Counted from the first letter of the stretch, positions 1 to 49,938 are shown. The stretch: DNA of 54,478 nucleotides from a virus (IMGVR_UViG_3300049982_000333:1-54478), one strand, 5' to 3'. Program-made: numbers and translations. Notes: generated from the sequence alone by a model not told the origin.

Positions 1-351
1 ATGATCCGCGACCGGCTCGTAGCCCCCCGCACTCCCGAAGCACGCGAGTACCTGCGCGCCGGCCGCGCGGTCCTCCCCGTGCAGCTCCAGGAGGAGGTTG
101 CCCGCGACTCCTGGCTCAGGGCCGAGCGGCGCTACGACGAGCTCGACGGCTTCCACGGGTCTGACGAGCGCCGGAAGCGGACGGCCAAGACGTACGACGA
201 GCGACGCCACGAGCTGACCATCGCCCGGCGCGCCGAGCGGCGCGCGAAGACCGCCGCCGAGCAGGCCGACCCGGCCTCGGCCGCCTCCGTCGAAGGCGAG
301 CTGCTGGCGGTGTGGTGCGACTACCACGACCGCCGGAACGAGCGCGGCTGA
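1..351 (+). CDS. Hypothetical protein
   Basis: ORF with GC3-rich codons, followed by a perfect hairpin. Confidence 0.6.
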   Translation: MIRDRLVAPRTPEAREYLRAGRAVLPVQLQEEVARDSWLRAERRYDELDGFHGSDERRKRTAKTYDERRHELTIARRAERRAKTAAEQADPASAASVEGELLAVWCDYHDRRNERG

Positions 352-359
352 GCCGCGCA

Positions 360-386
360 GGCCGGCCCCGGCGACCGGGGCCGGCC
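360..386. terminator. Perfect GC-rich intergenic hairpin (terminator or mRNA-stabilising stem)
   Basis: GGCCGGCCCCGG-CGA-CCGGGGCCGGCC; no U-tract. Confidence 0.5.
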
Positions 387-433
387 ACGCACCCGACCTC
401 CATCAACCCCGCGAATCCCCAGGAGTGATCACA

Positions 434-649
434 ATGGCGAACCCGCACGTCTGCTACCACGGCGGCGACTGGCAGTGCACCGACGGCAGCAGCCTCGGCG
501 TGATGAGCGCGACCGGGTGGCGCTACTTCGCCCACCAGCGCCGCTACTTCGACTACCTGATGGGCCGCAGGCCCAAGATGACCGCCGCCGAGGGTTACGC
601 CCAGTACGTCTACAACGCCAACCTGCGCGCCTGGACGCGCGGCGAGTAG
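434..649 (+). CDS. Small aromatic-rich hypothetical protein
   Basis: AGGAG RBS at 421, ATG 434, good codon bias. Confidence 0.75.
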   Translation: MANPHVCYHGGDWQCTDGSSLGVMSATGWRYFAHQRRYFDYLMGRRPKMTAAEGYAQYVYNANLRAWTRGE

Positions 650-754
650 CGCGCTGAGGCCGCCGCTCTTCCTGCAGTAGAGGCAACGCAGGGCGGGCGG
701 TTCCCCCGCGGCCGCCCGCCCGGCGCCGACCCACGACACGAAGGAGGCAAGACC

Positions 755-1255
755 GTGACCACCAGCGAGTGGAACACCTGGGACACATGCCCCGACCCGG
801 GGCCCGGCATGTCCGGCACCTGCCGGGTCGCCGTCCGGTACCGGCACGTCGAGAAGGACGAACCCGTCGAGCCCACCGTCGCCAACCCCGACTACCACCT
901 GCGGTACCGGTCGCAATGCGCCGGCTGCGGTCACCTGGGGCCGCAGCGCTCGAGCGAGAACGAGGCGGCCGAGGACGGCTGCGACCACGCCTACCCGGGA
1001 TGGCGGGACATGCCCGTCTTGGACCACCGGCCGTACGAGGGCAAGCCGCTCGCCCAATGGGAGAAAGCGGCCCGCGCCGTCTACCCGGCCGGGTGGCTGG
1101 AGCGGCAGGGCCCCGTCCGGGAGTACCGCACGCCAGGTGGGACCCGCCACGTGCCCGGCTACGCGCCCGGCGGCGGCTACTGCATGGCCGTCCTCCGCGC
1201 CGCCACCAGCACCACAGCCAAGCCCGTTGCCGTGCAGGAATCCCTGTTCGGCTGA
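755..1255 (+). CDS. DUF6349-like protein, paralog 1
   Basis: CxxC...EDGCDHAYPGWRDMP...RHVPGYAPGGGY motif; GAAGGAGG RBS. Confidence 0.7.
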   Translation: MTTSEWNTWDTCPDPGPGMSGTCRVAVRYRHVEKDEPVEPTVANPDYHLRYRSQCAGCGHLGPQRSSENEAAEDGCDHAYPGWRDMPVLDHRPYEGKPLAQWEKAARAVYPAGWLERQGPVREYRTPGGTRHVPGYAPGGGYCMAVLRAATSTTAKPVAVQESLFG

Positions 1256-1272
1256 CCAGCGAAAGGAACGCC

Positions 1273-1551
1273 ATGACCTCCGACCAGCCAATGAGCGCGA
1301 CCATGAAGGTGCGCGTCCGTGACCACTCGGGCGAGGCCCCCTGGGGTGTCGGGCCGACGAACCCGGTCGTCCGGACGGTCGAGATCTCCACCTCGTGCCC
1401 CCGCTGCGGCGGCAAGCGCGGAGAGCCTCGCAACCTGAACCAGTCCGAGGACGGGGCGCACTACTCGGTCGACGTGTGGACCAACCCGTGTGGCCACGTC
1501 GACATGCACGCGGACGTCGTCAAGGAGGCCGCCGAGCGAGGTGCCCGATGA
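1273..1551 (+). CDS. Small zinc-finger hypothetical protein
   Basis: GAAAGGA RBS; CPRCGG...NPCGH; ATGA overlap with next gene. Confidence 0.7.
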   Translation: MTSDQPMSATMKVRVRDHSGEAPWGVGPTNPVVRTVEISTSCPRCGGKRGEPRNLNQSEDGAHYSVDVWTNPCGHVDMHADVVKEAAERGAR

Positions 1552-2009
1552 TCCCGGCCGAGTCCTGCCGCGCCCGTTTCGTCTCCTGGATCCGCCGGGA
1601 CGGCGAGACCGACCCGCCTACCGTTCGCAACCCCGCGCACCGCATCCGGCTCCAGTCGCGGTGCCCCGGGTGCGGCCACCAGGGGCCGATCCGCTCCGAC
1701 GAAAACGAAGCTATCGAGGACGCCTGCGACCACGCCCACCCCGGCTGGCGCACCATGCCGCTCCTGGAGCCCTACCCGTACGAGCTCACCAAACGGCCCC
1801 GCTGGGAGGCGGCCGCACGCGCCGCCTACCCGCCCGGGTGGTTCGAACGCGAGGGGCCCGTCCGCGAGCAGCGCGGGCCGATCGGCGGCCGGCACGTGCT
1901 CGGCAAGGCACCCGGCGGCGGCTACGCGATGGGCGTCCTCGGCACCCGACCCGACCCCAAGCACGTCGAGGCCACGCAGGAATCCCTGTTCGGCGGACCC
2001 GCGAAATGA
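1548..2009 (+). CDS. DUF6349-like protein, paralog 2
   Basis: CPGCGH...EDACDHAHPGWRTMP...RHVLGKAPGGGY; clearly homologous to 755-1255. Confidence 0.7.
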   Translation: MIPAESCRARFVSWIRRDGETDPPTVRNPAHRIRLQSRCPGCGHQGPIRSDENEAIEDACDHAHPGWRTMPLLEPYPYELTKRPRWEAAARAAYPPGWFEREGPVREQRGPIGGRHVLGKAPGGGYAMGVLGTRPDPKHVEATQESLFGGPAK

Positions 2010-2026
2010 GAAGGAGGCGGTGGCCG

Positions 2027-2605
2027 ATGCCACGCGCTCAGGAAGAGTTCACGATCGAAGAGCACGCCCGAAACATCATCGACCTCGGGCACAACCTCGC
2101 GTTCTACGCCCTCATGGAGGCAGTGGAGATCACCGTCGAAGCGGAGGCCGCTGCAGCCCGCGAGGTAGAAGGCATGAAGAGCCTGCTGGCCAAGCTGGTC
2201 CAGAGGTTCGCCTACCACGGCGGGGGGCGGCATGGCGTCGACCCTGACGGCAGCAAGTCGGCCGCCGTGGTGGATCTGCTGCTGGACTCCGCGGCCGCGC
2301 GGATATGGGAGCAGCACGTGACGAATCTCAGTGGCATCGCCGCGCTTCTCGACCCTGGCACCGCTCCGGGCGGTGTGTTGGCGCACGTCCGCGTGTACGA
2401 CGACGACGCGTACGTCCAGAGCGTCGTCTGCCTGGTCCGGCCGGCCGATTGGAAGCTGCTTTTCGTCGACCCGGACGGGAAGTGCACCGGCAGCACGGTC
2501 GGCGGCAGCCGCCCGGCACACGAAGCGCTCACGGAGCACGTGCATCAGGTCTTCGGCCGGTCCGGCCGGATCGGCGAGGTCTTCGTCGAAGGGGTAGGCC
2601 AGTGA
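2027..2605 (+). CDS. Hypothetical protein
   Basis: AAGGAGG RBS at 2011, ATG 2027, GTGA overlap with downstream MTase. Confidence 0.7.
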   Translation: MPRAQEEFTIEEHARNIIDLGHNLAFYALMEAVEITVEAEAAAAREVEGMKSLLAKLVQRFAYHGGGRHGVDPDGSKSAAVVDLLLDSAAARIWEQHVTNLSGIAALLDPGTAPGGVLAHVRVYDDDAYVQSVVCLVRPADWKLLFVDPDGKCTGSTVGGSRPAHEALTEHVHQVFGRSGRIGEVFVEGVGQ

Positions 2606-3435
2606 AGATCCCGCCCGAGGTCCTGGAGGTCCTCACCGACCCGCGGACCGTCATCGCCGGCGACCGCGTGCACATCCCGTTCGAGCTGGGCAAGCCGCTG
2701 TACGAGCGGCTGAAGCGAATTTTCGGCGAGATGGGCGGCAAGTGGGACGGACGCAAGGCGGTCCGCGCGCATGTCTTCCCGCGCGGCATCGAGTCGTTCA
2801 TGTTCGATGCGATCACCGCGGGGGAGTTCCCGTCGCGGTTCGACACGGGGTGGTACGCCACGCCGCCCGCCGTGGTGGAGGAGCTCCTGGCCCACGCTGG
2901 CATCAGCGAGAAGTACCCGGGCAAGACGACGTTGGAGCCATCCGCGGGTATCGGATCGATCGCCGGGCCGGCTGCCGCGCGAGGCGCCGTCGTCGACGTC
3001 GTCGAGCTCGACGAGCACCGCGCGTCGGTGCTGGCCGGGCATGGCCTTTACCGGCGAGTGGTGCACGGCGATTTCCTGGAGGTCGACCCGCTGTCCTATG
3101 AGGTCGGTTTCCAGCGGGTGGTGATGAATCCGCCGTTCGCCGAGGGTCTGCGGCACGTCAACCACGCGCTGGGGTTCCTGGGGGATGACGGGGTGCTGGT
3201 GTCGGTGCTGTCCGAGGGCGTGACGTGGCACACCGACCGGGCCACCGTGGAGTTCCGCAGGATCGTCGACGAGGCCGGCGGCGCGATCGTGCGCCTCCCG
3301 GACGGGTCGTTCCGCGCGTCGGGAACCGATATCAAGTCCGTCCTCGTGGTCGTCCCGACGATGCCCGGGCACACGGTCCGGAACCACAGCTGGCACCTGC
3401 GCCGGCCGAAGCAGCTCGACCTGTTCGCTGCCTGA
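2602..3435 (+). CDS. SAM-dependent amino (N6-adenine-type) DNA methyltransferase
   Basis: Motif X (WYATPPAVV), motif I (LEPSAGIG), motif IV (VVMNPPF), LPDGSF; ends QLDLFAA. Confidence 0.85.
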   Translation: MKIPPEVLEVLTDPRTVIAGDRVHIPFELGKPLYERLKRIFGEMGGKWDGRKAVRAHVFPRGIESFMFDAITAGEFPSRFDTGWYATPPAVVEELLAHAGISEKYPGKTTLEPSAGIGSIAGPAAARGAVVDVVELDEHRASVLAGHGLYRRVVHGDFLEVDPLSYEVGFQRVVMNPPFAEGLRHVNHALGFLGDDGVLVSVLSEGVTWHTDRATVEFRRIVDEAGGAIVRLPDGSFRASGTDIKSVLVVVPTMPGHTVRNHSWHLRRPKQLDLFAA

Positions 3436-3475
3436 CTGCGGCGCTCTGGTCTGCACAACGAAGGAGAGGAACCTC

Positions 3476-3697
3476 ATGAGCAAGCAAGGCGTCACGACCA
3501 ACCTCGCCGTGTCGGTGTACTACGACGACACGCAGACGACGCAAGAGGAAGCCATCGCGGAGATGCACCGGGCGCTCGCCGAGGCCGATAAGGCGGGCCA
3601 CTTCGAGCGGCGCCTGGTCGAGATCGCGTTCGGGGAGGACCACGACCCGGAACCGTTCACGCCCGCAGATGCCAGCGACGGGGACGAGCGGCGGTGA
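3476..3697 (+). CDS. Small acidic hypothetical protein
   Basis: AAGGAGAGGA RBS; ORF. Confidence 0.65.
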   Translation: MSKQGVTTNLAVSVYYDDTQTTQEEAIAEMHRALAEADKAGHFERRLVEIAFGEDHDPEPFTPADASDGDERR

Positions 3698-3732
3698 CCT
3701 GCGAAAACGTGCGATTCCTGGCCCGTAACATC

Positions 3733-3778
3733 TGGCATGCGCATGACCAGATCGCTATGATGAAGATATAAGAAAAAG
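3733..3778 (+). promoter_or_regulatory. Repeated early promoter, copy 1
   Basis: TGGCAT-N17-TATGAT; 25-mer GCTATGATGAAGATATAAGAAAAAG identical to 11766-11790. Confidence 0.75.
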
Positions 3779-3800
3779 TCCCACAATGAAAGAAGGAGCC

Positions 3801-4550
3801 ATGACCGCCTACACCGAGGAGCTCGCCACCTGGCACGCGATCGCCGCCCAAATCGAGGCCGAGAACGGCCCCCTCCCGGGCAGCTACCGCGCCGAGCAGG
3901 CCGAGGCGGAAGCCGCCCGCCAGGCCGAGGCCGACGCGCTCGACGACAAGGCGCACGCCCAGGGGTGGGGCATCAAGGACCCCGCCCGCGCCGAGGCCGC
4001 CCGGCTGCGCGCCGAGTCCCGCGCCGCCGAGCTCCGCGCCGAGGCCGCCGACCACGACCTCAAGGCCCATGAGTCGCGCGAGCGGTGCGACACCGACGGC
4101 TTCATCTCCCAGTGGGCCGACGGCCTCATGGCCGCCGAGAAGCGCCTGCAGGCCGACATCGAGGAGGCCGGCGGCCGCGCCCTGTTCCCCGCCCTGTTCG
4201 ACCTCGCCGGCAACCTGGTCCCCGCCAAGCAGATGCAGGGCCAGTGGGGCACCTACTGGGCCGTGCTCGACGACAACGGCCGGATCACCGGCACCTGGTT
4301 CACCCCGTCCAAGTCGAGCAACGCGCGCCGCGCCCGGGCCGCCGACGCCGCCAAGGGCTACTACGTCGGGTACGTGATGGCGGCCGCGAAGGCGGAGATC
4401 CGCGGCGGCAACGCGACCTCCTGCAGCGCGGTGGCCGTGCGCACCGACGGCGGCTACTCCACCGACGTCGAGATCGTCGACGACGGCCAGCACGACGAGT
4501 TCGGCGAGACCCTCGGCCGCCACTACGCCATCTGGGGCGGCCTGATCTGA
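3801..4550 (+). CDS. Hypothetical protein
   Basis: GAAGGAG RBS, ATG 3801, strong codon bias, first gene after the promoter. Confidence 0.8.
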   Translation: MTAYTEELATWHAIAAQIEAENGPLPGSYRAEQAEAEAARQAEADALDDKAHAQGWGIKDPARAEAARLRAESRAAELRAEAADHDLKAHESRERCDTDGFISQWADGLMAAEKRLQADIEEAGGRALFPALFDLAGNLVPAKQMQGQWGTYWAVLDDNGRITGTWFTPSKSSNARRARAADAAKGYYVGYVMAAAKAEIRGGNATSCSAVAVRTDGGYSTDVEIVDDGQHDEFGETLGRHYAIWGGLI

Positions 4551-4561
4551 CCTCTACCCGC

Positions 4562-4607
4562 ACCCCCGGGGCGCCCGCCCCGGGGGTCTCCAACCGCTAC
4601 AGGAAGG
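4562..4607 (+). repeat. Hairpin plus AACCGCTACAGGAAGG start-associated repeat, copy 1
   Basis: 16-mer at 4592-4607 is identical to 4918-4933; preceded by stem ACCCCCGGGGC/GCCCCGGGGGT. Confidence 0.7.
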
Positions 4608-4612
4608 CCCCC

Positions 4613-4882
4613 GTGTCTGACCTCCCGCGCCCCCTCGGCCCCGTCCGCGCCGCCGTCGCCCGGCTGCTCGCCGAAGCCCTGGCCGCCGTTCACGGCGAAC
4701 GATCCCGCAACGCCACGGCTCTTCACCTCATGCCACCCAGCCTCGTCACCGCTGCGGTGTCCACCGCCGGCGAGCTGTGGATCTACCTCGGCCGTGAGGA
4801 TCCCGAGGACATGCTCTCCGGGCTGCAGCTGCGCGCCCTCAACGCCGCCGCTGACGTGTTCCACCCGAGCGACGACGACTAA
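4613..4882 (+). CDS. Hypothetical protein
   Basis: GTG start after AGGAAGG RBS. Confidence 0.6.
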   Translation: MSDLPRPLGPVRAAVARLLAEALAAVHGERSRNATALHLMPPSLVTAAVSTAGELWIYLGREDPEDMLSGLQLRALNAAADVFHPSDDD

Positions 4883-4933
4883 CCCCGCCCCCACGCCACA
4901 GGGGCTGGGGGCTCACTAACCGCTACAGGAAGG
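4883..4933 (+). repeat. Hairpin plus AACCGCTACAGGAAGG start-associated repeat, copy 2
   Basis: Identical 16-mer at 4918-4933 preceded by an imperfect GC stem. Confidence 0.7.
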
Positions 4934-4941
4934 ACCAGCAC

Positions 4942-6120
4942 GTGATCCGCATCGTGCACACCCGGGCCGAAGGCACGCTGATCGAAGGTTCCCGCAAGGG
5001 CGACGGCGTATGGGAGATCGTCCGAACCCGCGGGTTCCACTGGTCGCGCAACGTCGGCCTCTACATCCGGAACTCCCAGGACAAGGCCGCGGACCGGTGG
5101 ACGATCGACCGGGCGGTGCAGGCACTGCGCGACGCCGGGTTCGAGGTCCAGGTGGAGATCGACGACGTGACCCCGGGCCGGTCGTTCGCCGAGGCCGAGG
5201 CCGACCGCGTCGACCGCGCGGAGGACCGGGCCGACCGGTTCGGCGAGCGCGCCGACCGCAACGCCGCCTCCGGCGACGCCCGGTGGGAGGCGACCCGCGA
5301 GCGCATGTCGCACCTGCCGGCCGGGCAGCCGATCCTCGTCGGTCACCACAGCGAGGGCAAGCACCGCCGCCAGCTCGAATGGGCGGACAACCAGGACCGC
5401 AAGGCCATCGGCGAGCTGAAGAAGGGAGAGTACTGGGCAGGCCGGGCGGCCGCCGCCGAGAACTACCAGCGGCACCGGGAGGACCCGGGCACCACGCGCA
5501 GGCGCATCGAGAAGCTGCAGGCCGACCGGCGCCGCATCGCCAGTGTCCTTGAAGACGGCTGGAAGGAGACGGTCGACCCCGACGAGGAGGCCCCCGAGGG
5601 GGCCAAGGTGCTGCACGCCTGGGACGACGGCTACCGCATGTGCCAGGTGTGGCCGACCGGCGACCACAAGGCCTCCCGCGAGGCCGATCTCGCCCAGCTC
5701 GACGACCAGATCGGCTACTGGCAGCAGGTGCTCGCCAAGGCCGAGCAGCGCGGCGTGAAGCTGTGGAGCAAGGCCGACTTCGGCAAGGGCGATTTCGTGA
5801 TCTACCGCGGGACTGCGGTCGAGGTGATGCGGGTCAACGCCAAGTCGCTGACCGTCCCGTGGGGGCACTACTGGGCGGGGTCGGGGCTGCCGGTGGTGAC
5901 GGTCGAGTACGCCAAGGACGCGCACCGCCCGGGTGGCCGCATCTACACCGACACGCTGCCGTACGACAAGGTGCAGGGCCGCCTCAGCAGGGACGAAGCC
6001 ACAGCGCCCGGTCTCTCCCGGCCGCAGGTCCGCGAGCTCATCGCCAAGAGGGTTCGCGAAGCGCGGGGCGAGCAGCCGGAGCCGGCTGCGGAGGAGGCGC
6101 CGGCGGCAGAGCAGTCCTGA
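4942..6120 (+). CDS. DUF3560 domain-containing protein
   Basis: Signature GQPILVGHHSEGKHRR and RRRIEKLQADRRR. Confidence 0.85.
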   Translation: MIRIVHTRAEGTLIEGSRKGDGVWEIVRTRGFHWSRNVGLYIRNSQDKAADRWTIDRAVQALRDAGFEVQVEIDDVTPGRSFAEAEADRVDRAEDRADRFGERADRNAASGDARWEATRERMSHLPAGQPILVGHHSEGKHRRQLEWADNQDRKAIGELKKGEYWAGRAAAAENYQRHREDPGTTRRRIEKLQADRRRIASVLEDGWKETVDPDEEAPEGAKVLHAWDDGYRMCQVWPTGDHKASREADLAQLDDQIGYWQQVLAKAEQRGVKLWSKADFGKGDFVIYRGTAVEVMRVNAKSLTVPWGHYWAGSGLPVVTVEYAKDAHRPGGRIYTDTLPYDKVQGRLSRDEATAPGLSRPQVRELIAKRVREARGEQPEPAAEEAPAAEQS

Positions 6121-6170
6121 CAGCAGGAGGGGTGACGCGGGATTTGGCGTGGTCACCCCCGCCTCACGCA

Positions 6171-6208
6171 TGGTTATCAAAGGCATACGACGATATGATG
6201 GAGATATG
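6171..6208 (+). promoter_or_regulatory. Repeated early promoter, copy 2 (degenerate, leaderless)
   Basis: TGGTTA-N17-TATGAT-GGAGAT-ATG; start codon sits at the expected +1. Confidence 0.6.
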
Positions 6209-6646
6209 AATCTAGCTACGTGCACGTACCAGGAAGTCACGCCGGACATGGGCATCCCGGTACGCACAACCGTCGGTGCACCGCGCTTCAAGCTCGCCTA
6301 CCAGCTCGCCGGCCACGCCAAGCTCATCACCCCCACCCGGCCGATGCTCGGCCTCCCCAGAGGCGCCTACGAGGTGTCCTACCGGGGTCTGTTGAACGCA
6401 GCCGGCGCCGAGCGGATCCACGCCGAACTTGCCGCGATCCACGCGGCCGCCGGGCGGCCCGCGGCGGCTCTCGTGCTGCTGTGCTTCGACCGGCTCGACA
6501 AGCCTGGCGAGTGGTGCCACCGGTCGATGTTCGCCGACTGGTGGCTAGAGCACACCGGCCAGGAAGTACCCGAGCTCGGCGCCACGCCTGGCGTGCCCGC
6601 CGCCGAGCCCGCTCCCAAGGTCAACCCGCCGTCAGCGCTGTTCTGA
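6206..6646 (+). CDS. DUF488-like protein
   Basis: LVLLCFD...WCHRSMFADWW motif. Confidence 0.7.
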   Translation: MNLATCTYQEVTPDMGIPVRTTVGAPRFKLAYQLAGHAKLITPTRPMLGLPRGAYEVSYRGLLNAAGAERIHAELAAIHAAAGRPAAALVLLCFDRLDKPGEWCHRSMFADWWLEHTGQEVPELGATPGVPAAEPAPKVNPPSALF

Positions 6647-6705
6647 CCGCGACCGAACCCGGGGCGGCGCCCCACGCGCCGCCCCCATCATTCGAGAGAG
6701 ACGTG

Positions 6706-7449
6706 ATGATCGACACCAGCCCCATTGAGCTGACCGACGAGCAGTGGACTGCGCTCCTGGCCGACTACGACGGCATGGACAGCTTCACGGTCAAGGACTT
6801 CGACGACGTGGAGCAGCTGCTCGTCCTGGCCCGGGAGAAGCTCGGCAACCTTCCCGAGGGCCACCCGCTCAGCTGCCCCGAGCTGCTGCACATGGCGCTG
6901 TGGGACACCAGCGACGCCAACAACTGGTCCCTCATGATGACCGTGGACCTGGCCGGCCTCCGGCTGGCAACCGACCACGTCAAGATCGGCCCCTTCCGGG
7001 ACGCCAACGAGACCCCCGGCGAGCCGGTCCTGCGTGCCGTCCTCGGCGAGCTCCTCGACCACCGCAACCGCCTGGTGCGCAAGCTCGCCCGGCACTTCAC
7101 CGCGACCGGCGTGGGCGCCACGTCCGACCCCGGCAACGGCACGGTGACCCTGGACATCGACACCGCGGCCGGGACCCTCCACATCGACCTCAGCGAGGAG
7201 TACGGCGAGGCCCTCGGCGGGCTCCTCTTGGACGACCCCGCCCACTCGGACGGCACCGGGCACGAGCTCGACATCGTCCTCGCGCATGAGCAGTTGCAGG
7301 AGTGGGCCGGGAGCCAACTCGACGCGAACGACATCTCGTGGTTGGACGACCAGATCCCGCACTCCAGCATCCCGGAGGCCATCAACACGATCTGCACCCA
7401 GCTCGACGACGAGGACCAGGAGGACGAGGACGAGCCGACGATCGACTGA
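6706..7449 (+). CDS. Acidic hypothetical protein
   Basis: Long ORF with GC3 bias and D/E-rich C-terminus. Confidence 0.7.
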   Translation: MIDTSPIELTDEQWTALLADYDGMDSFTVKDFDDVEQLLVLAREKLGNLPEGHPLSCPELLHMALWDTSDANNWSLMMTVDLAGLRLATDHVKIGPFRDANETPGEPVLRAVLGELLDHRNRLVRKLARHFTATGVGATSDPGNGTVTLDIDTAAGTLHIDLSEEYGEALGGLLLDDPAHSDGTGHELDIVLAHEQLQEWAGSQLDANDISWLDDQIPHSSIPEAINTICTQLDDEDQEDEDEPTID

Positions 7450-7534
7450 CCAGACCACCCCGGGGCTGGCGCCGCGCCGCCCCTGCCCCCGCCCGCAAGG
7501 CGGGGGCGCCGTCATCTCAGCAGAAGGAGTGAAG

Positions 7535-7996
7535 ATGCTCAGCGACCTCACCGCCCGATGCGTCACCTACGCGGTCGGCGTGCTTGCCACGCCTGGCCAG
7601 TTCCTCAGCATCCACATCAGCGCGGAAGGCCACATCGACGGGATCTGCGGCCACGACGCCCGCGTGTCCCGCGACTGGCTCCTCAGCATGATCGAGCCCG
7701 GCTGGCCTGGCTACGACCCCGCCATGGACTGGCGCAAGGGGAAAGCGGTGGACCCCGCCGGCACCTCGAAGTCGCCTCTCGCGGTGGGTGCCCGGGTGCG
7801 CCACGTCGGTCAGCAGTACCCGAAGGCCGTGTGGGAGGGCTCCGGGAACATCGCGCTTATCAAGGGCCCATACCTGGATGGTGCCTGGGAGTATCTGATC
7901 TACCACGACGCGGGTTTCGCAGGCACGGGGGAGCCTGGTGCTCCGTCGTGGTGGGCGTCGTACGCAACTGTCGACGTGGAAGAGCCGGCCTGGTGA
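7535..7996 (+). CDS. Hypothetical protein
   Basis: GAAGGAG RBS; GTGA overlap with next gene. Confidence 0.65.
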   Translation: MLSDLTARCVTYAVGVLATPGQFLSIHISAEGHIDGICGHDARVSRDWLLSMIEPGWPGYDPAMDWRKGKAVDPAGTSKSPLAVGARVRHVGQQYPKAVWEGSGNIALIKGPYLDGAWEYLIYHDAGFAGTGEPGAPSWWASYATVDVEEPAW

Positions 7997-8532
7997 GCGC
8001 GGCAGACGTCCAGGCAGCTTTCCTAGCCGCTCACCGAGACGAGCAGATCGGCATGTGGTGCATCTACATCGGGCACCCGGGCGGCGAGCTAGGCCGCCGC
8101 GATCCGGTCGCCTCGACTGCTCCTCTGCACCGCCCGACCGTGCTGCACCGGTCGGGCTGGGACTTCAGGAAGCAGCGGCGGGGGGCGTGCCTCGGCTGCG
8201 AATGGGAAGGCCCGGACTGGCGCTCGGAGCGAGACGCGGTCGAGGACGCGCACGATCACTGCTGGCCCGGCTGGCGGGATCTGCCGGCAGCGCGCCCGTC
8301 AGGGACGAACTACCAGCGGTGGTTGGAGGAGGTGAAGCGCGCCTACCCGGAGGCCTGGTTGGACGCCGGCGGTCCGATCGTCACCGTGCGAGCTGATTCC
8401 CGGTTCTCGCGGCATATGCCGGCTAAGGCGCCCGGCGGGGGTTACGACCTGGCTGCGACATACGCCGTCACGTACTACCGGCCGAAGAAGCGTGGGAGGC
8501 ACGCCCAGTCCGCGCTCGACCTGGAGATGTGA
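7993..8532 (+). CDS. DUF6349-like protein, paralog 3
   Basis: CLGCEW...EDAHDHCWPGWRDLP...RHMPAKAPGGGYD. Confidence 0.75.
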   Translation: MSAADVQAAFLAAHRDEQIGMWCIYIGHPGGELGRRDPVASTAPLHRPTVLHRSGWDFRKQRRGACLGCEWEGPDWRSERDAVEDAHDHCWPGWRDLPAARPSGTNYQRWLEEVKRAYPEAWLDAGGPIVTVRADSRFSRHMPAKAPGGGYDLAATYAVTYYRPKKRGRHAQSALDLEM

Positions 8533-8576
8533 TGTGCGTGCGGCGATATTTGTGCAGATCACAGCGCTAATCACTC

Positions 8577-8620
8577 TGTACATGCGCGTGGCCAGTTTGC
8601 TATGATAAAGATATAAGAAA
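8577..8620 (+). promoter_or_regulatory. Repeated early promoter, copy 3
   Basis: CAGTTTGCTATGATAAAGATATAAGAAA; 1 mismatch to the core of copies 1 and 4. Confidence 0.7.
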
Positions 8621-8653
8621 TTGAGCGTTACCCCCACCGAGAGGCGACCCCCC

Positions 8654-8788
8654 ATGAGCCACCCGTTCAGCATCGACGAGATCAACGCCCGCTACGCGGC
8701 CCTCATCGACGCGACCGACGACCCGGCCGAGATCGACCGCCTGGACGCCGAGCGCGTGGAGCTCATCGCGAACCACCCCGAGAGCTGA
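8654..8788 (+). CDS. 44-aa acidic small protein (MSHPFSIDEINARYAALIDATDDPAEIDRLDAERVELIANHPES)
   Basis: Read manually, not in the ORF track; GAGG RBS; first gene after promoter copy 3; followed by hairpin 8797-8821. Confidence 0.7.
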   Translation: MSHPFSIDEINARYAALIDATDDPAEIDRLDAERVELIANHPES

Positions 8789-8853
8789 GAACGCCAGGGC
8801 GGGGGCGAGAGGCCCCCGCCCCGCGGCCCCTCGACCGAACCAGGGAGACCCTC

Positions 8854-9093
8854 ATGCGCACCCTCTGGGACGACGCCCGCCCCACCGGCACGATCGCCGT
8901 CCGCTTGTCCGCCGAGGAGACCGAGACCCTCCTCGACATCGTGGCCCTGGCCCACGCCCGCGCGAGAGTCTCGGGCCACGTCGAGGACGCCGCCCACCTG
9001 GGCGCGGTCACGCGGAAGCTCGATTCCCTCGGCGTGTGCGCCGGCGGGGTCACCGTTTACGGCGCCGCTGTCCCGGCGCCCCTCACGCCCTGA
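8854..9093 (+). CDS. Hypothetical protein
   Basis: GGGAG RBS; ORF. Confidence 0.65.
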   Translation: MRTLWDDARPTGTIAVRLSAEETETLLDIVALAHARARVSGHVEDAAHLGAVTRKLDSLGVCAGGVTVYGAAVPAPLTP

Positions 9094-9105
9094 AGGAGTT
9101 TCCCG

Positions 9106-9606
9106 ATGCCCATCTACCTGCCCGCTCCCACTCGCGACGTGCGCGGTCCCGACGGTGGCGGCTGGAACCGGCTCAGCCTCAACGCCGGTCCGGTGTACCC
9201 GGGCCAGTGCGCCCTGCAGCCGACCTCGTACGCGACCCTGTGGGAGTCGCATGACACGCGCCGTGCCCGCTGGGGCGGCTTCGGGGGATGCGTCCGGGGC
9301 GGAGCCTGCGCTGGCTGCCCGTCGCTGACGCCCGCCGAGCCGCGCCGGCTGCTGTCGTTCACGCCGGACGTCCTCGTGCGGATCCTGGTCCGCAGCGGCG
9401 CGGCGGACCAGCCGCACGTCATGAACCGGCCCGAAGACGGCTGGGCGTCCCGCTCCGAGCGGTGGACCTGGCCTGAGCTGGCCCACCTGACCGGATGGCG
9501 CCTCGGCCGGCAGCACGTCGACGAGCACAGCGACGGCTTCTGGCTCCACGCGACGCACGCGAGCGGCGGCGTGTACGGCAAAAGCGAGGCCCTGCGATGC
9601 AGCTGA
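9106..9606 (+). CDS. Cys/Trp-rich hypothetical protein
   Basis: AAGGAG RBS; CxxxxxCxxC. Confidence 0.7.
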   Translation: MPIYLPAPTRDVRGPDGGGWNRLSLNAGPVYPGQCALQPTSYATLWESHDTRRARWGGFGGCVRGGACAGCPSLTPAEPRRLLSFTPDVLVRILVRSGAADQPHVMNRPEDGWASRSERWTWPELAHLTGWRLGRQHVDEHSDGFWLHATHASGGVYGKSEALRCS

Positions 9607-9824
9607 CCCTGGACTTCCCCGAGCCCGAGCGCCCGGTGGCCGAACCGCACACCGGCCGGCCGCAGGTCCGCCGCGGTCCGCAGCGCCGGGTCACGGTCCT
9701 ATGCCCATTCGGTCACCTCGTCTGGTCCATCGCGCCGGGCGACTGGGCGGGCTCCTGGTACCAGGCGCGACTCACCGACCCGGCCTTCACCGTGACCTGC
9801 CACGGCTCCCTGCAGGAGCGGTGA
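9597..9824 (+). CDS. Small hypothetical protein starting MQLTLDF
   Basis: 10-bp overlap with upstream gene; paralog of 10340-10585 (RPQV...VTxLCPxGHL...DWAxSxYxARLxDPxxTVxC). Confidence 0.7.
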   Translation: MQLTLDFPEPERPVAEPHTGRPQVRRGPQRRVTVLCPFGHLVWSIAPGDWAGSWYQARLTDPAFTVTCHGSLQER

Positions 9825-9826
9825 CC

Positions 9827-9871
9827 ATGCAGCTGGCCCTCGAGATCCCCCGGCCCGGACTGGAGATGTGA
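9827..9871 (+). CDS. Possible 14-aa minigene MQLALEIPRPGLEM
   Basis: CAGGAG RBS, ATG 9827, TGA 9869-9871; same MQL start as neighbours. Confidence 0.3.
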   Translation: MQLALEIPRPGLEM

Positions 9872-9872
9872 C

Positions 9873-10349
9873 ATGACACGATCCGAAGGCGACGCCCTGT
9901 TCGATTTGGCCCCGGCCGCCGACGCGGATCGCACCGCGCAAGGCTGGACCACTGTGACCCGCGAGGCGGTGACGCACACCATCGAGGACCACTTCGCCGC
10001 CGCGCGGCCCATCATCCGCGAAGGCCGACGCGACTTCTTCCCCTGCGTAGCCATCTACCGGTGGAGCTGGAAGCGCGGCCACGGTTGGAAACTGGATCTG
10101 TACGAGCTGAGCGGCCCCAACCGGAAAGCCGACGGCGCGGTCGGCCTGATGACCGTCACCCACCGCCTACACGGCACCGACCCCGAGGTGTGGGCCAGGC
10201 TGCCGGACTGGCTGTACCTGGCCATGGCCGCTACCCGCCCCGACTGGGAACCCCCGCCGGCCCAGCTGCAGCCCGCTGAGGGCATGGTCGAAGCGCTCAT
10301 CGCCGACGACTTCCCGCTCGGCCAGGGGGAGACCCGGCCGTGCAGTTGA
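9873..10349 (+). CDS. Hypothetical protein
   Basis: GGAG RBS; ORF. Confidence 0.65.
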   Translation: MTRSEGDALFDLAPAADADRTAQGWTTVTREAVTHTIEDHFAAARPIIREGRRDFFPCVAIYRWSWKRGHGWKLDLYELSGPNRKADGAVGLMTVTHRLHGTDPEVWARLPDWLYLAMAATRPDWEPPPAQLQPAEGMVEALIADDFPLGQGETRPCS

Positions 10350-10585
10350 GCCTCCTGGACGACCCGTTCGCTCTGCGGCCGCATGATGTGCGGCCGCAGG
10401 TCCACCGATTCGAGGGCGGGCGGGTCACGCTGCTGTGCCCGTACGGGCATCTCATCTGTTCAATGGCGGCTGACGACTGGGCTGCCTCGGGATACGCCGC
10501 ACGTCTTGCCGACCCGGACTACACGGTCGCCTGCGCCAACGGCGCGGTGCCGGTCGAGATGTGGTGGAGGTCCCAGTGCAGCTGA
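10340..10585 (+). CDS. Small hypothetical protein starting MQLSLL (paralog of 9597-9824)
   Basis: Sequence similarity to 9597-9824; 10-bp overlaps at both ends. Confidence 0.7.
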   Translation: MQLSLLDDPFALRPHDVRPQVHRFEGGRVTLLCPYGHLICSMAADDWAASGYAARLADPDYTVACANGAVPVEMWWRSQCS

Positions 10586-11709
10586 CCCTGGACCTCCCCG
10601 CGCTGGACCGCCCCCGGCCCGTGCTGAACCTGCTGGCCTACGACCTGATCGTCATCTGCAGTTCTGCAGGCAAGGACTCGCTCGCACTGCTGGCCTGCGT
10701 CGCCGAGCTCATCGCCGAGCAGGGATACCGCGGCCGCGTGGTCGTGCTGCACAACCACCTCGGCGTCACCCGGTCCGGCGAGCCGGTCGAGTGGTGGGGC
10801 GTCGAAGCGGCCGCCCGCGAGCACGCCGCAGCGTGCGGGTTCGAGTTCGTGGTACGGCGCCGCCCGGGCGGCGGCCTGTGGGACCAGCTGCTCGGCCAGC
10901 GCCGCCGGTGGATGGCGAACAACGCGCGTTGGTGCACCAGCGATCAGAAGACCGGCCCGTCGATGACCTGGGTCACCGAGGCGGTCGCCGAGTTCTGGGA
11001 GCAGCTCGACATGCCCGCGGACCGGCCGGTGGAGGTGCTGTACTGCCTGGGCCTGCGCGGCGAGGAGTCCGCCGGCCGCGCCGGGCAGCCGATCGTCCAG
11101 GTGGACCAACGCCGCTCGTCGGGCAACCGGCGGATCACGCGGTGGCTGCCGATCCGGGACTGGACCATCCGGGACGTGTGGGGGCAGATCGCGGAGTCGG
11201 GTCTGCGGCCGCACGCCGGGTATTCCTGGGGTCTGGGCCGGTTGTCGTGCAGCTTGTGTGTGCTGGCGTCGCTGGAGGATCTGATGCTCGCCGCGGCGCT
11301 GCGCCCGGCGCTGGCGGCCGACTACCTGTGGGCGGAGATCGAGCTGGAGCAGCCGTTCACCGAACGGCTGTCCATGGGGCAGATCCTCGCCGGCCTCGAT
11401 GCCGCCCGGCTGGAAACCGCCGGCGACACCGCGGCGGCCGCCGACGCCACGGTGGTGTTGTACGAGATGGTCCGCGAGTTCCTGGCTGACACGCCCGCGG
11501 CCCGGGGCGAGGGGACCACCAAGTCGGGCAAGCCGCGCCGGCCGTGGACCGATCAGGAGCTGGCCGGCCGGGCGTCCGCGCGCACCGCCGAGATTCTCGC
11601 GGCCGGGCGCCGGGCCGTCGCGCTGGTGGCGGAGGCGGACACGAGTGTGTGGATGCTGGACCCGCTCGACGACCACGCGGCGGCTGTCCTGGCAGGAGCA
11701 GCCGGTTGA
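10576..11709 (+). CDS. PAPS reductase-like PP-loop protein
   Basis: CSSAGKDS PP-loop, RWCTSDQKTGP, GLRGEESAGRA, WLPIRDWT, RLSCSLC. Confidence 0.85.
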   Translation: MQLTLDLPALDRPRPVLNLLAYDLIVICSSAGKDSLALLACVAELIAEQGYRGRVVVLHNHLGVTRSGEPVEWWGVEAAAREHAAACGFEFVVRRRPGGGLWDQLLGQRRRWMANNARWCTSDQKTGPSMTWVTEAVAEFWEQLDMPADRPVEVLYCLGLRGEESAGRAGQPIVQVDQRRSSGNRRITRWLPIRDWTIRDVWGQIAESGLRPHAGYSWGLGRLSCSLCVLASLEDLMLAAALRPALAADYLWAEIELEQPFTERLSMGQILAGLDAARLETAGDTAAAADATVVLYEMVREFLADTPAARGEGTTKSGKPRRPWTDQELAGRASARTAEILAAGRRAVALVAEADTSVWMLDPLDDHAAAVLAGAAG

Positions 11710-11744
11710 CCTGCGGTAACTGTGCGATTCATCCCGGTAACCCC

Positions 11745-11790
11745 TGGTATTCGCATACGCAGTTTGCTATGATGAAGATATAAGAAAAAG
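11745..11790 (+). promoter_or_regulatory. Repeated early promoter, copy 4
   Basis: TGGTAT-N17-TATGAT; similarity to copy 1 extends back to TGACCTGCG (11707 vs 3695). Confidence 0.75.
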
Positions 11791-11821
11791 CTCCTCCCCC
11801 CTCCACAGAGAGAAGGCCGCC

Positions 11822-11950
11822 ATGACCGCCCCCATCACCTTCGTCATCACCGCCAACGGCAACGAGGTCACCGTCGAGGTCACCGTCGCGGACGCCGAGA
11901 AGCTCGTCCCGATCTTCGCCGCGAACGGCATCACCTACCGCATCGCCTAA
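11822..11950 (+). CDS. 42-aa small protein (MTAPITFVITANGNEVTVEVTVADAEKLVPIFAANGITYRIA)
   Basis: Read manually; GAGAAGG RBS; extreme C3 bias; followed by a hairpin. Confidence 0.7.
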   Translation: MTAPITFVITANGNEVTVEVTVADAEKLVPIFAANGITYRIA

Positions 11951-12008
11951 CCCCCACCCGCCCCCCGGCCTGCGCGGCCGGGGACCCGTCCAGCGGAAGA
12001 AGGCTGTC

Positions 12009-12272
12009 ATGTCCACCACCACCAACGACCGCGCCACCATCGCCCGTGCCGCCCGCGAGCACGGCCTCTCCGTCGCCTACGCCGCAGTGTCCGCCGCCAG
12101 CTACGAGCAGGACGGGAAGTCGCTGACCGTTTCCTACGGCAGCGAGGAGGACCTGGTCGGGGCGTTCTACATCCACGCCCGGGCTGTGCCGGGCCGGCCG
12201 CTCGACTCGGTGGATGAGGTCGTGGCTGCCCTGGACGAGATGGTGCCCCAGAACGACGTCCCGTCCACCTGA
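12009..12272 (+). CDS. Hypothetical protein
   Basis: GAAGAAGG RBS; ORF. Confidence 0.7.
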   Translation: MSTTTNDRATIARAAREHGLSVAYAAVSAASYEQDGKSLTVSYGSEEDLVGAFYIHARAVPGRPLDSVDEVVAALDEMVPQNDVPST

Positions 12273-12330
12273 CCCCCGCGCGGGGGCCAGCCTGCCCGGC
12301 CGGTCCCGCGTCTGAAAGAAGGGCCCTGAC

Positions 12331-12516
12331 ATGGTCGGCCAGCAGCGCACCACCGCGCACTACGAGCGCGACTGCCCAATGTGTGGCGTCAGGATCGTGG
12401 AGGAGCGTGACCGCGAGTACGCACCCATGGTCGGCGCGTTCTGGCACTGCGGCCAGCGTGTGGACATCGGGCGGACGATATACCGCGCGGATGGCACCGC
12501 GATCCACAACCCCTGA
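12331..12516 (+). CDS. Small zinc-ribbon hypothetical protein
   Basis: CPMCG...WHCG; GAAGGG RBS. Confidence 0.55.
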   Translation: MVGQQRTTAHYERDCPMCGVRIVEERDREYAPMVGAFWHCGQRVDIGRTIYRADGTAIHNP

Positions 12517-12538
12517 CCCGACCTCGGTCTGCGCGGCC

Positions 12539-12574
12539 TGGACATCGAACCTTAAGGACCTTAAGGTATTGCTC
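12539..12574 (+). promoter_or_regulatory. Leaderless promoter with tandem palindromic operator CCTTAAGG x2
   Basis: TGGACA-N17-TAAGGT-N7-ATG; CCTTAAGG at 12550-12557 and 12559-12566. Confidence 0.7.
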
Positions 12575-13213
12575 ATGACCTGGAACGAAATCGGCATCGA
12601 ACCGGCCCGGAAGAAGCTCGGCGCCCTCGTGGCCGCCGCCCAGCGCGGACAGACCACCATCCTCACCCGCAACCGGACTCCCGCCGCGATGATCACACCG
12701 GTTCCCCTGCACCTCGCCCTCCGCGACATCAGCGTCGAAGCCATCGACCAGGGCAACTGGCGCGACCAGGCCATCCAGGACTGGATCGAAGCCGCCGCCG
12801 AGGAGGGCTACGGCTTCACCGTCCGGCGCACCCACTACTCCGGCGACGTGCTGGCCGTCCTCGCCGAGGACAAATGGATAGGCGACGAGATCACCCAGGG
12901 CGAGCCGCTCGCCCTGCTCGTCGACCGCACGCACCCGGATGTCGCAGAGGGCGATGGGGACACGCTCGACATCCACCCCGGGCTCATATCCCTACGCGGG
13001 GACCCCGGGCCCGCGGACGCCGTTCAGAGCGACGGCGACATCCCCGACCGGCCCGCCACAGCAGACATGGTCGTGGCCGGCCGATTCCGCGTCCAACGAA
13101 ACGGCTCGGGCGGAATCAGTCTCGACTGGGGCGACGGCGAGATCGACATGGGCGACGACGACGCCGAGCAACTCGCCGCAGCTCTCGCGACCGTACGTCG
13201 CCAGCCGCGATGA
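12575..13213 (+). CDS. Phd/YefM antitoxin-like DNA-binding domain fused to an acidic C-terminal region
   Basis: N-terminus IGIEPARKKLGALVAAAQRGQTTILTRNRTPAAMITPV matches the Phd fold pattern. Confidence 0.7.
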   Translation: MTWNEIGIEPARKKLGALVAAAQRGQTTILTRNRTPAAMITPVPLHLALRDISVEAIDQGNWRDQAIQDWIEAAAEEGYGFTVRRTHYSGDVLAVLAEDKWIGDEITQGEPLALLVDRTHPDVAEGDGDTLDIHPGLISLRGDPGPADAVQSDGDIPDRPATADMVVAGRFRVQRNGSGGISLDWGDGEIDMGDDDAEQLAAALATVRRQPR

Positions 13214-13295
13214 CCACCCGTTGACCCTCGCACCTGGTGATCGGCTAGCATCGACAGTGATCGGCTGATCATGTTGCGGCGCAGCCGATCGCCCC

Positions 13296-13366
13296 GCGCC
13301 GGAGTTGTGACGGCCGCATGCCCCTCTTCCCGAGGGGCGGACCAGGTTCGAGTCCTGGCCGGCGCT
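13296..13366 (+). tRNA. Non-canonical tRNA-Gly(TCC)-like RNA
   Basis: Acceptor GCGCCGG/CCGGCGC plus U73; anticodon arm CCCCT-CTTCCCG-AGGGG; T-arm CCAGG-TTCGAGT-CCTGG; weak D-arm; A8 and C37 deviations; no encoded CCA. Confidence 0.7.
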
Positions 13367-13401
13367 CGGCTTGCACACCGCCAGAGACCCGGGGGCTGGC
13401 T

Positions 13402-14745
13402 ATGTTCCACGGATCTATCCCAGCTCCGCTCCGCTCGATCATCTACGAGCACGCAGGCACCTGGCCAGGCGAGGACATCTACGTCGGCTGCAGCGGCAAC
13501 TTCACGATCGAGCGCGTGCTCCACGCCCGGTTCGGCGCCACCCGCGCCGTCCACGGCAACGACGTCCAGGCTTACTCGAGCGCCCTCGGCTGGTGGCTGG
13601 CCGGCCAGCCCGTCCCCTTCACCCTCCGCGAAGACCACGAGGAAGCCCTCGGCTGGCTCAGGCCCTACCTCGACGACCCCACAGACCTGCTCGCCACCCT
13701 GATGCTCGGCACCCGGTTCCTGCAGTGGGTCGGCAAGACCGGCCCGTACTACCGGCGGATGCTCGCGGCGACGCAAGATCAGTGGCCTCGCATGCACGAC
13801 AAGACCGCGACCAAGCTGCGGAACCTGACCGTACGGCTCGGCTCCTACTTCGCCGGCGACGTCCGCGACTACCTGACGCAGGTGGTGCCCGACACCGCGC
13901 CGGTCGTCATGTTCCCTCCGTTCTACGGCGGAGACTACGAAGCGCAGTTCGCGCCGATCGATGCCGCGTTCGACTGGCCGGCCCCGACGTTCGACGAGCT
14001 CGACGAGGACGGGAAAGAGCAGATCATCGCCCAGGTCCGCGAGCGTCCCAACTGGATGCTCGGCCTGCACATCGAACGGCCCGAGCTGCGCGCCCAGCTC
14101 GCCGGCGTCGTCCAGACCGCCAACCGCGGCCTGCCGATCTACGTGTACGCCGCGTCCGGGCCGCGGCGCATCGTCCGCCCGCACCAGACGACCGCCGGCA
14201 TCCCCATGCCGAAGATCGGTCCCGACGACGTGCTCGGCGACCGCATGGCGCTGCACATGCTCAGCGGCGGCCAGTTCGCCGCGATCCGCTCGCAGTTCAT
14301 GTCCAAGACGATCAAGCCGGGGTCGCCTTTGCTGGCGTGTGGCGTCTCCGTTGACGGGAAGATCGTCGGCGCGTTCGCGTTTCTGCCGCCGAAGTTCGAG
14401 CCGACCTCTGCCTACCTGATGTCGGACTTCCCGGTGTCGTGGAGCCGGTACCGGCGCCTGGCCAAGCTGATCGTCATGGCCGCCAACACCAGGGAGGCGC
14501 AGCTGCTGCTGCAACGCTCGCTGTCCCGCCGGATCACCGACTGGTCGACCACGGCGTTCACCGACAACCCGAACTCGGCGAAGTACGGGCGAGGCATCCC
14601 CGGCGTCAAGCTGGAGAAACGCACGGAGCCCGCGGCTGACGGCGTCCACCGCTACCAGCTGCAGTACGGCGGCCCGATGGGTCAGCGCACACTGGCCGAA
14701 GCGCTCGACCTGTGGAAGCGCAAGCACGGCAAGGACACCAGATGA
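13402..14745 (+). CDS. Putative DNA-modification/antirestriction enzyme: adenine-MTase-like N-terminus plus GNAT(Mom)-like C-terminus
   Basis: DIYVGCSGNF (motif I-like), HGND, VVMFPPFY (degenerate DPPY); C-terminal GVSVDGKIVGAFAF...YLMSDFPV...RLAKLIVM...TTAFTDNPNSAKY resembles a GNAT fold. Confidence 0.6.
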   Translation: MFHGSIPAPLRSIIYEHAGTWPGEDIYVGCSGNFTIERVLHARFGATRAVHGNDVQAYSSALGWWLAGQPVPFTLREDHEEALGWLRPYLDDPTDLLATLMLGTRFLQWVGKTGPYYRRMLAATQDQWPRMHDKTATKLRNLTVRLGSYFAGDVRDYLTQVVPDTAPVVMFPPFYGGDYEAQFAPIDAAFDWPAPTFDELDEDGKEQIIAQVRERPNWMLGLHIERPELRAQLAGVVQTANRGLPIYVYAASGPRRIVRPHQTTAGIPMPKIGPDDVLGDRMALHMLSGGQFAAIRSQFMSKTIKPGSPLLACGVSVDGKIVGAFAFLPPKFEPTSAYLMSDFPVSWSRYRRLAKLIVMAANTREAQLLLQRSLSRRITDWSTTAFTDNPNSAKYGRGIPGVKLEKRTEPAADGVHRYQLQYGGPMGQRTLAEALDLWKRKHGKDTR

Positions 14746-49067: not shown

Positions 49068-49092
49068 CAGCCCTCGTCCTCTCGTTGATCGA

Positions 49093-49305: not shown

Positions 49306-49306
49306 G

Positions 49307-49764: not shown

Positions 49765-49804
49765 GGTGGGCTCCTTCCGGGGGATTCCGTGGGGTCGAAA
49801 CGGA

Positions 49805-49937: not shown

Positions 49938-49938
49938 A

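Follow-up and report, generated by a model that had tools for sequence, protein, structure and literature searches.

Clients of the bacterial beta sliding clamp, DnaN, bind it through short peptides. A review of these contacts gives the consensus as QL(S/D)LF, names QLDLF as the strongest-binding peptide and reports a phage-display hexamer, LQLELDF; it places the motifs in the C-terminal tails of Pol II, Pol IV as well as Pol III alpha, or in Hda's disordered N-terminus (PAQLSLPLYL), and describes the glutamine as aiding binding without being indispensable (PMC11139829). Two actinobacterial cases are DinB1 of Mycobacterium smegmatis, whose “beta clamp” mutant lacks QESLF (PMC9346131), and NucS, in which the five C-terminal residues form the clamp motif (EYRLF in M. 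tuberculosis; preprint 10.1101/2025.06.19.660520). Such motifs have so far been known mainly from replication and repair proteins, and lately from one phage transcription factor. Here we analyze the IMG/VR provirus record IMGVR_UViG_3300049982_000333 (54,478 bp, ~70% G+C, CheckV completeness estimate 64%; the whole record is called the window below), in which a group of early proteins carries similar peptides at the N- or C-terminus. The prophage is of actinobacterial, Streptosporangiaceae host type. Judging from sequence, we consider these peptides to be probably genuine motifs for binding the beta sliding clamp, by which DNA-modifying and uncharacterised proteins are tethered to it.

Using a codon log-odds model trained on the window's long open reading frames (ORFs), we called 73 proteins. 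The motif cluster lies in the non-structural module (1 to ~13 kb, all plus strand), to the left of the structural module, and translation of the window recovers all ten terminal peptides listed in an initial annotation of this DNA. Three carriers are DUF6349 paralogs. The first (755-1255, 166 residues) ends ..VQESLFG, with QESLF at nucleotides (nt) 1235-1249 followed by a glycine and the stop codon. The second (1548-2009, 153 residues) has QESLF at nt 1977-1991; the peptide had been read correctly, but the protein does not end QESLFGG as had been stated, its real end being QESLFGGPAK, with the motif five residues before the terminus. The third (7993-8532; 179 residues from our own start, 159 in the public call) carries QSALDL at nt 8506-8523, followed by EM, a hexapeptide-like and weaker candidate. 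Between them lie a class I S-adenosylmethionine-dependent methyltransferase with an NPPF motif (2602-3435, 277 residues), which ends ..KQLDLFAA with QLDLF at nt 3412-3426 and two further alanines, and a phrog_2450 protein (6206-6646, 146 residues), which ends PPSALF (nt 6629-6643), a candidate motif without the glutamine.

The remaining carriers bear the peptide at the N-terminus. A small phrog_14636 protein (9597-9824, 75 residues, ATG start) opens with MQLTLDF (nt 9600-9617), and a second (10340-10585, 81 residues, GTG start with a GGGGGAG run upstream) with MQLSLLD (nt 10343-10357); PHROG matches identify the two as paralogs. They flank an orphan gene (9873-10349, 158 residues) that has DALFDL at residues 7-12 (nt 9891-9908), a weak candidate, and matches neither a Pfam nor a PHROG family; 44 related loci and 151 genomes of the order were searched without yielding a homolog. 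Each of the two separate paralogs has its own N-terminal motif. The peptide MQLALEI at 9827 had also been listed, and it is present; what carries it is a mini-ORF of only 14 codons (9827-9871, MQLALEIPRPGLEM and then a stop), which ends 1 nt before the ATG of 9873 and is preceded at 7 nt by a Shine-Dalgarno-like run, GGAGCGG. It could be a free clamp-motif peptide, an N-terminus detached by frameshift, or nothing. The last carrier is a 3'-phosphoadenosine 5'-phosphosulfate (PAPS)-reductase-like enzyme of the DndC-type fold family (10576-11709), whose MQLTLDL (nt 10579-10596) holds only if translation begins at the GTG at 10576; this GTG is the start in the public gene call (P0121, 377 residues) and has a Shine-Dalgarno-like run, GGTGGAGG, 6 nt upstream.

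Overall, we count seven good matches in four families: the three DUF6349 proteins, the methyltransferase, the PAPS-reductase-like enzyme and the two paralogous small partners, with PSALF and DALFDL weaker. QLDLF of the methyltransferase, QLTLDF at 9597 and QLTLDL at 10576 match the strict consensus, the two copies of QESLF equal the DinB1 motif, and QLSLL, QSALDL, PSALF and DALFDL are looser. QLTLDF also resembles the phage-display hexamer. The “about ten unrelated proteins” of the initial annotation reduce to four or five independent families, since three of them are DUF6349 paralogs and two are phrog_14636 paralogs. We also asked whether the four (A/G)TGCAGCTG starts reflect a repeated or regulatory element in the DNA itself: the aligned starts are conserved over the MQL.L codons only and not upstream, and we dropped the idea because, given the window's codon bias, peptide identity accounts for the DNA identity.

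The peptides are strongly concentrated at termini and in the early module. Window proteins match QL[SD]LF or QL.L.[LF] three times within 12 residues of a terminus and never internally, and a relaxed pattern gives 7 matches in the 12-residue termini against 12 in 15,293 internal positions. When Q..LF, QL.L.[LF] or QL.LL was sought in the first or last 15 residues, 6/73 proteins matched, and all six fall among the 23 encoded below 12 kb (6/23 versus 0/50 elsewhere in the window). Composition-preserving residue shuffles averaged 0.15 such proteins with a maximum of 3, and six was reached in 0/2000. We took a host-type background from 40 evenly spaced 20-kb pieces of one Streptomyces chromosome and one Streptosporangium contig, processed with the same gene caller and regular expression. 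There a terminal motif occurs in 1/687 genes, a figure that describes the pattern and not all clamp binders because the expression overlooks host DinB and NucS motifs (Fisher p = 4e-9 versus the 6/23 early proteins, to be read descriptively). Comparison with host terminal-motif frequency had been named in advance as a check, and its outcome is enrichment.

The methyltransferase provides the clearest conservation. Its sequence matches PHROG families annotated as DNA methyltransferase at 1e-30, its NPPF catalytic motif is invariant in the homolog alignment (N176 P177 P178 F179), and its Pfam MTS score is 16.5, below the cut-off of 23; we describe it as a nucleic-acid amino-methyltransferase with DNA as a candidate substrate. 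Q..LF lies within the last 14 residues in 118/120 homologs spanning 50-100% identity, in exactly the form QLDLF in 96, and the set contains a single internal motif match in 29,516 residues. The tail occurs in 0/38 distant homologs of the catalytic domain, which end where the domain ends or are embedded in giant proteins; these come from loci L042-L080, two of them Streptomyces, two from other actinobacteria and the remainder from other phyla. Because 118/120 close and 0/38 distant homologs carry it, the tail is best described as an add-on of one actinobacterial clade.

The DUF6349 proteins show the same separation of domain and motif. All three exceed the 25-bit cut-off of Pfam PF19876, with 104.9 (755-1255), 101.5 (1548-2009) and 152.5 bits (7993-8532). 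Among 141 DUF6349 representatives (50%-identity clusters of proteins of at most 450 residues), the last 15 residues include the motif in 30, of which 22 end exactly at F, and the first 15 include it in 19 (e.g., MQLALFEQ and MTTQLGLFDQ), with 9 internal matches in 25,377 residues. The representative nearest to the third window paralog, 71% identical, ends QDALEWEL. In an alignment of 33 members, its rows selected for having the C-terminal motif, the domain closes at ..APGGGY.MAV and is followed by a linker that varies in length and sequence, and then by Q..LF. An AlphaFold2 model of 755-1255 has a mean predicted local distance difference test (pLDDT) score of 89.8, with low confidence in the first ~20 residues and values of about 61-65 in the last ~16; the Pfam domain stops at residue 150 of 166, leaving the motif outside the folded domain on what appears as a disordered tail. 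The modeled fold is a small alpha/beta domain with conserved Cys/His residues (C55, C58, D77, H78). Foldseek returned nothing for it in the PDB at E <= 0.001, and the best Z in a wide VIA-align search was 3.5, which is not proof of a new fold. A literature search on DUF6349 retrieved no paper on function and one unrelated match. The DUF6349 domain is also found inside proteins of 1,553 to 7,994 residues.

In the PAPS-reductase-like family, the motif changes ends. The window enzyme scores 33.1 bits against Pfam PF01507 (cut-off 22.5) and matches phrog_424; it falls below the DndC equivalog threshold (TIGR03183, 23.8 versus 290.4 bits). Close homologs begin MQLTLDLPE, MQLLLDFPE or MQLTLNLPE, and more remote ones MTNQLALFE, MSATQPALF or MSTQAALF. 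Others have a bare N-terminus and end instead EEQLALFA, GQLLLFAT, EQTALFELAA or IQTSLFDPA. By the strict pattern, 10/75 homologs carry the motif at the N-terminus and 4/75 at the C-terminus. A homolog search with the small protein at 9597-9824 returned only itself; tblastn on the related loci found its relatives, and these phrog_14636 homologs begin MIRPVQLALDIP, MTQLTLFGG or MGLMQLALLSDP. A Nonomuraea locus (L013:17944-19392) encodes a PAPS-reductase-like enzyme with the phrog_14636 domain (..YTVTC.G..) fused to its C-terminus, and this fusion ties the two small proteins of the window functionally to that enzyme. Since the peptide is kept while the linker drifts and can switch termini, its behaviour is that of a docking motif rather than of a fold element.

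The phrog_2450 protein is probably also a carrier, judging by the tails of its relatives. It had been labeled DUF488-like, a label that Pfam does not support: the protein has no Pfam family at E <= 0.01, and at E <= 5 only a noise match to TPR_4. A PHROG match assigns it to phrog_2450, of which 34/35 members in the related loci end ..PP[ST]LF, ..TLFD[FL] or ..GGL[FW], in each case behind a conserved VPELG and a linker that varies. The NucS proteins of three host-type genomes end ..NDTLF, ..NPTLF and ..KLRLF. These host tails share the flavour of the glutamine-less PP[ST]LF tails and of the window's PSALF.

The motif is common in loci related to the window. Scanning the methyltransferase alignment over one genome per species yielded 79 loci, 44 of them actinobacterial; in these 44, a terminal motif occurs in 101/1058 called genes (15 N-terminal, 86 C-terminal), and in 63/1015 once the methyltransferase that served as bait is removed. 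The carriers form 13 BLAST families. A second methyltransferase family (PF02384, N6_Mtase) has an N-terminal M[EQ]QLDLFA in 10/11 members, and DUF3560-containing proteins have a C-terminal EQLDLF in 19 members of a 105-member BLAST cluster; further families are a 220-residue family, a 150-residue family, an HNH endonuclease and a GP88-family protein. With N6_Mtase, DUF3560, HNH endonuclease and GP88 among the 13, the carriers are mostly DNA-acting proteins.

The eight closest of the 44 loci, all from Streptosporangiales (L002, L003, L013, L016, L033, L034, L041 and L065), also encode a full-length DnaN paralog, which lies upstream of the methyltransferase at a distance of a few kb. The two that were scanned against Pfam, L002 (3499-5106) and L013 (3462-4799), each have all three beta-clamp domains, and in both a ParB gene follows the clamp. 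The L002 paralog scores 237.3 bits against TIGR00663 (cut-off 137.65) and is 53% identical to the host DnaN; no claim made here draws on genomes flagged as unpublished. All eight keep ATDR[YF]R and LxMPxR(L/I), two motifs in which host clamps vary little or not at all, and carry an extra 60-150 residues at the N-terminus. Where both were found (5/8 loci), the gene order is clamp, homolog of the window's first gene, DUF6349, methyltransferase. Since the closest relatives encode such a paralog, the target clamp may be the element's own, instead of or besides the host's. The other 36 actinobacterial loci, mostly Streptomyces, have tags and no clamp gene within 10 kb; the host clamp must be a possible target as well. 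Of four DnaN-like genes in one Streptosporangium genome (G001), the canonical one is beside dnaA and a further chromosomal copy ends ..MSLRLT; the other two are longer, and one of them lies in a related element.

Taken together, match to published motifs, conservation in homologs, switching between termini and enrichment give good support to the earlier reading of these peptides as sliding-clamp-binding motifs; from them we infer physical binding, the identity of the clamp that is bound and the purpose of binding. Several points weigh against this reading. The strict published consensus (QL[SD]LF or QLxLx[LF]) is matched by just 3/10 of the listed peptides, and the N-terminal motifs hinge on the choice of start codon. 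The solved sequences nearest to the methyltransferase are ribosomal RNA adenine methyltransferases (E ~1e-6; about 3e-6). The window's own DUF3560 protein (4942-6120) ends ..APAAEQS without a motif, and its tag may have been lost. The related loci share ancestry and are not independent samples, so that p-values overstate the evidence and Fisher values are descriptive only; likewise, the background expression misses host clients with weak or internal motifs, such as DinB with its internal RQLGLGE and NucS without the glutamine. Finally, the window has no DnaN, with no PF00712 match at E <= 1. It starts exactly at the first gene of the synteny, to the left of which the relatives' clamp gene lies, so that a clamp gene in the same place in this element would fall outside the record.

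In the mechanism that we propose, a motif on a flexible tail would dock each carrier into the hydrophobic pocket of a DnaN clamp, which would be the host's and probably also the DnaN paralog of the closest related elements. As clamps remain on freshly replicated DNA, such a tether would concentrate the enzymes on nascent element DNA. Modifying nascent DNA and titrating the host clamp had both been put forward as purposes in the initial annotation, and either may be served by docking. The most likely one would be modification of nascent element DNA, by methylation and possibly by a DndC-like chemistry, before host restriction or defence sees it. Because the carriers of known fold act on nucleic acids and clamps mark new DNA, co-replicational modification is the most economical purpose. 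A tentative extension, which we put forward as a possibility well short of an even chance, is a private “tool-belt”, in which the element's DnaN paralog, loaded on element DNA, would recruit about a dozen clamp-tagged families and couple epigenetic protection and anti-defence to element replication. Its members would be two DNA-methyltransferase families, the DndC-like enzyme with its zinc-ribbon-like partner, the HNH nuclease, DUF6349, DUF3560 and phrog_2450. If true, the arrangement would parallel DNMT1-PCNA in bacteria and would give DUF6349 a first function, as a clamp adaptor or a clamp-dependent factor.

The main rival accepts that the clamp is bound and assigns the tags a role in host takeover: early, high-affinity tags would saturate the host clamp's pockets and displace polymerases, repair or replication-control factors, with the result that host replication is stopped or clamps are freed for the element. 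Overexpressed MuC of phage Mu offers a precedent, as it is lethal in a motif-dependent manner and rescued by co-expressed hda and dnaN (PMC12867686; preprint 10.1101/2025.01.04.631326). The presence of the same tag on multiple paralogs also speaks for takeover, as does the lack of a recognisable enzymatic domain in the three DUF6349 proteins and the 14-codon mini-ORF. However, the best-conserved carriers are nucleic-acid enzymes (two methyltransferase families, the PAPS-reductase-like enzyme and the HNH endonuclease), for which a tether has an obvious use; the relatives encode an extra clamp and not clamp binders alone; and prophages or integrated elements would need tight control of such toxicity. 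We therefore hold takeover as the main role to be unlikely, and note that it and co-replicational modification are not mutually exclusive.

Alternatively, the Q..LF and QLxLxL termini could dock onto another hub, encoded by the element or the host, such as a ParB-like protein, an ATPase of packaging or conjugation, or a chaperone; the resemblance of the termini to clamp motifs would then be due to convergence. ParB-family genes always adjoin the module in related loci, the window has a ParB-like gene of its own, and many variants stray from the strict clamp consensus. Yet QLDLF itself, which is the optimal clamp peptide, is the form seen most often, QESLF is a documented actinobacterial clamp motif, and the placement at the extreme C-terminus, or at the N-terminus as in Hda, follows the rules of clamp motifs. 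To our knowledge, there is no other hub that reads this peptide, and we regard this explanation as improbable.

Still further from the evidence is the idea that the C-terminal tails, especially ..LFAA and ..LFALA of the methyltransferases, are degradation tags of the ssrA type that keep early proteins short-lived. Many methyltransferase homologs do end in AA, LA or similar small residues after LF, and such endings resemble ssrA-type C-termini. DUF6349 tails, however, stop at LF or LFG, with no residue following the motif in 22/30 C-terminal cases; homologs carry the same motif at N-termini, where a C-degron cannot work; and invariance is confined to Q..LF and does not extend to the last two residues. 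We judge a degron very improbable. Least credible of all is chance or artefact, that is, pentapeptides with leucine and glutamine arising in a high-GC proteome and made more numerous by paralogy and by freedom in choosing start codons: three C-terminal and two N-terminal cases are indeed paralogs, several listed peptides are loose matches and the structural-module amidase also ends in an LF-containing tail, but the shuffles never reached the observed count, the host background is almost devoid of terminal motifs, the methyltransferase tail persists down to 50% identity and the motif recurs across 13 sequence families. That amidase (endolysin, 45241-46215) ends ..KVTLFSR, without glutamine; it is the sole case of LF near a terminus beyond the early module, and is probably due to chance.

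We favor clamp tethering with modification of nascent DNA, and the surrounding genes fit a DNA-modification and anti-restriction theme. A Mom-type module (13402-14745), consisting of DAM-like-phage1 and GNAT-like domains (349 and 191 bits), lies upstream of the small terminase, and a ParB-like gene (14742-15683) follows it, just upstream of the same terminase gene. Both proteins, encoded within 13402-15683, lack the terminal motif. From ~15.7 kb onward, a plus-strand structural and lysis module encodes small and large terminase, a Mu-type portal, a ClpP-like protease with Mu-like scaffold, capsid, tail tube, tape measure, holin and amidase. The right end (47488-54478) is on the minus strand and encodes a PCMT-like methyltransferase, an FtsK/SpoIIIE-family ATPase (709 residues) and genes without assigned function; it may be a neighbouring conjugative-type element or host flank rather than phage. 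The nearest homologs of the non-structural module's proteins are from Streptosporangiaceae (Streptosporangium, Nonomuraea and Planomonospora), with more remote ones in Streptomyces. The region had no megablast match among 50,697 phage records, and a viral-contig search with the PAPS-reductase-like protein found zero relatives. A promoter and terminator scan of 1-13500 returned two weak promoter-like sites and nothing informative.

If confirmed, our findings would mean that mobile elements tag whole sets of DNA-modifying and uncharacterised proteins for the sliding clamp. Our literature search, which did not extend to supplementary partner lists, returned the work on Mu and that on cellular clients, and no account of methyltransferases, PAPS-reductase-like enzymes or DUF6349 proteins bearing clamp tags, or of tagged suites in mobile elements. 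It also found no link between a bacterial methyltransferase and the clamp, and as far as that search reaches, the window enzyme would be the first bacterial clamp-coupled methyltransferase. Confirmation would also open three families of unknown function (DUF6349, phrog_2450 and phrog_14636) to experimental testing and would suggest a role for the extra dnaN copies of actinomycete genomes. Moreover, griselimycin-type antibiotics directed at the clamp pocket might then also disturb phage and mobile-element biology.

Among described systems, MuC of phage Mu is similar in being a temperate-phage protein with near-consensus motifs at both termini whose function needs the host clamp (PMC12867686; preprint 10.1101/2025.01.04.631326), and the window phage also shares with Mu its type of portal, a Mu-like protease/scaffold and a Mom-type module. 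The Mu case, however, concerns a single transcription activator from a proteobacterial host. In the window, a minimum of four families within one module carry the motif and none is a recognisable transcription factor, and relatives of the window encode their own clamp. Cellular clients (Pol II, Pol IV, Pol III alpha, Hda with QLSLPL, DinB1 and NucS) present the same class of peptide on disordered termini, but they are chromosomal replication and repair proteins, whereas the carriers described here are mobile-element proteins (methyltransferases, a DndC-like enzyme, DUF6349, DUF3560 relatives and phrog_2450).

In eukaryotes, the DNA methyltransferase DNMT1 is tethered to PCNA through a PCNA-interacting protein (PIP) box peptide and methylates nascent DNA. 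The window methyltransferase is comparable as an enzyme that would be tethered to a sliding clamp by a short peptide, and differs in the clamp, the motif and the domain of life. The peptide pocket of the clamp is also exploited by Tn7 TnsE, insertion sequence (IS) transposases, staphylococcal phage clamp inhibitors and the Caulobacter toxin SocB. These are single proteins that serve target choice or inhibition; in the window, by contrast, a set of presumed modification proteins and uncharacterised proteins is tagged. A last comparison is with the polyvalent proteins of phages and conjugative elements, since this methyltransferase domain, DUF3560 and DUF6349 recur inside proteins of 1,200-8,000 residues from other phyla. 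None of the 38 distant loci has the methyltransferase tail, whether the domain sits in a giant protein or in a short stand-alone form. In the actinobacterial elements, unlike in polyvalent proteins, these domains are separate genes, each with its own putative clamp tag.

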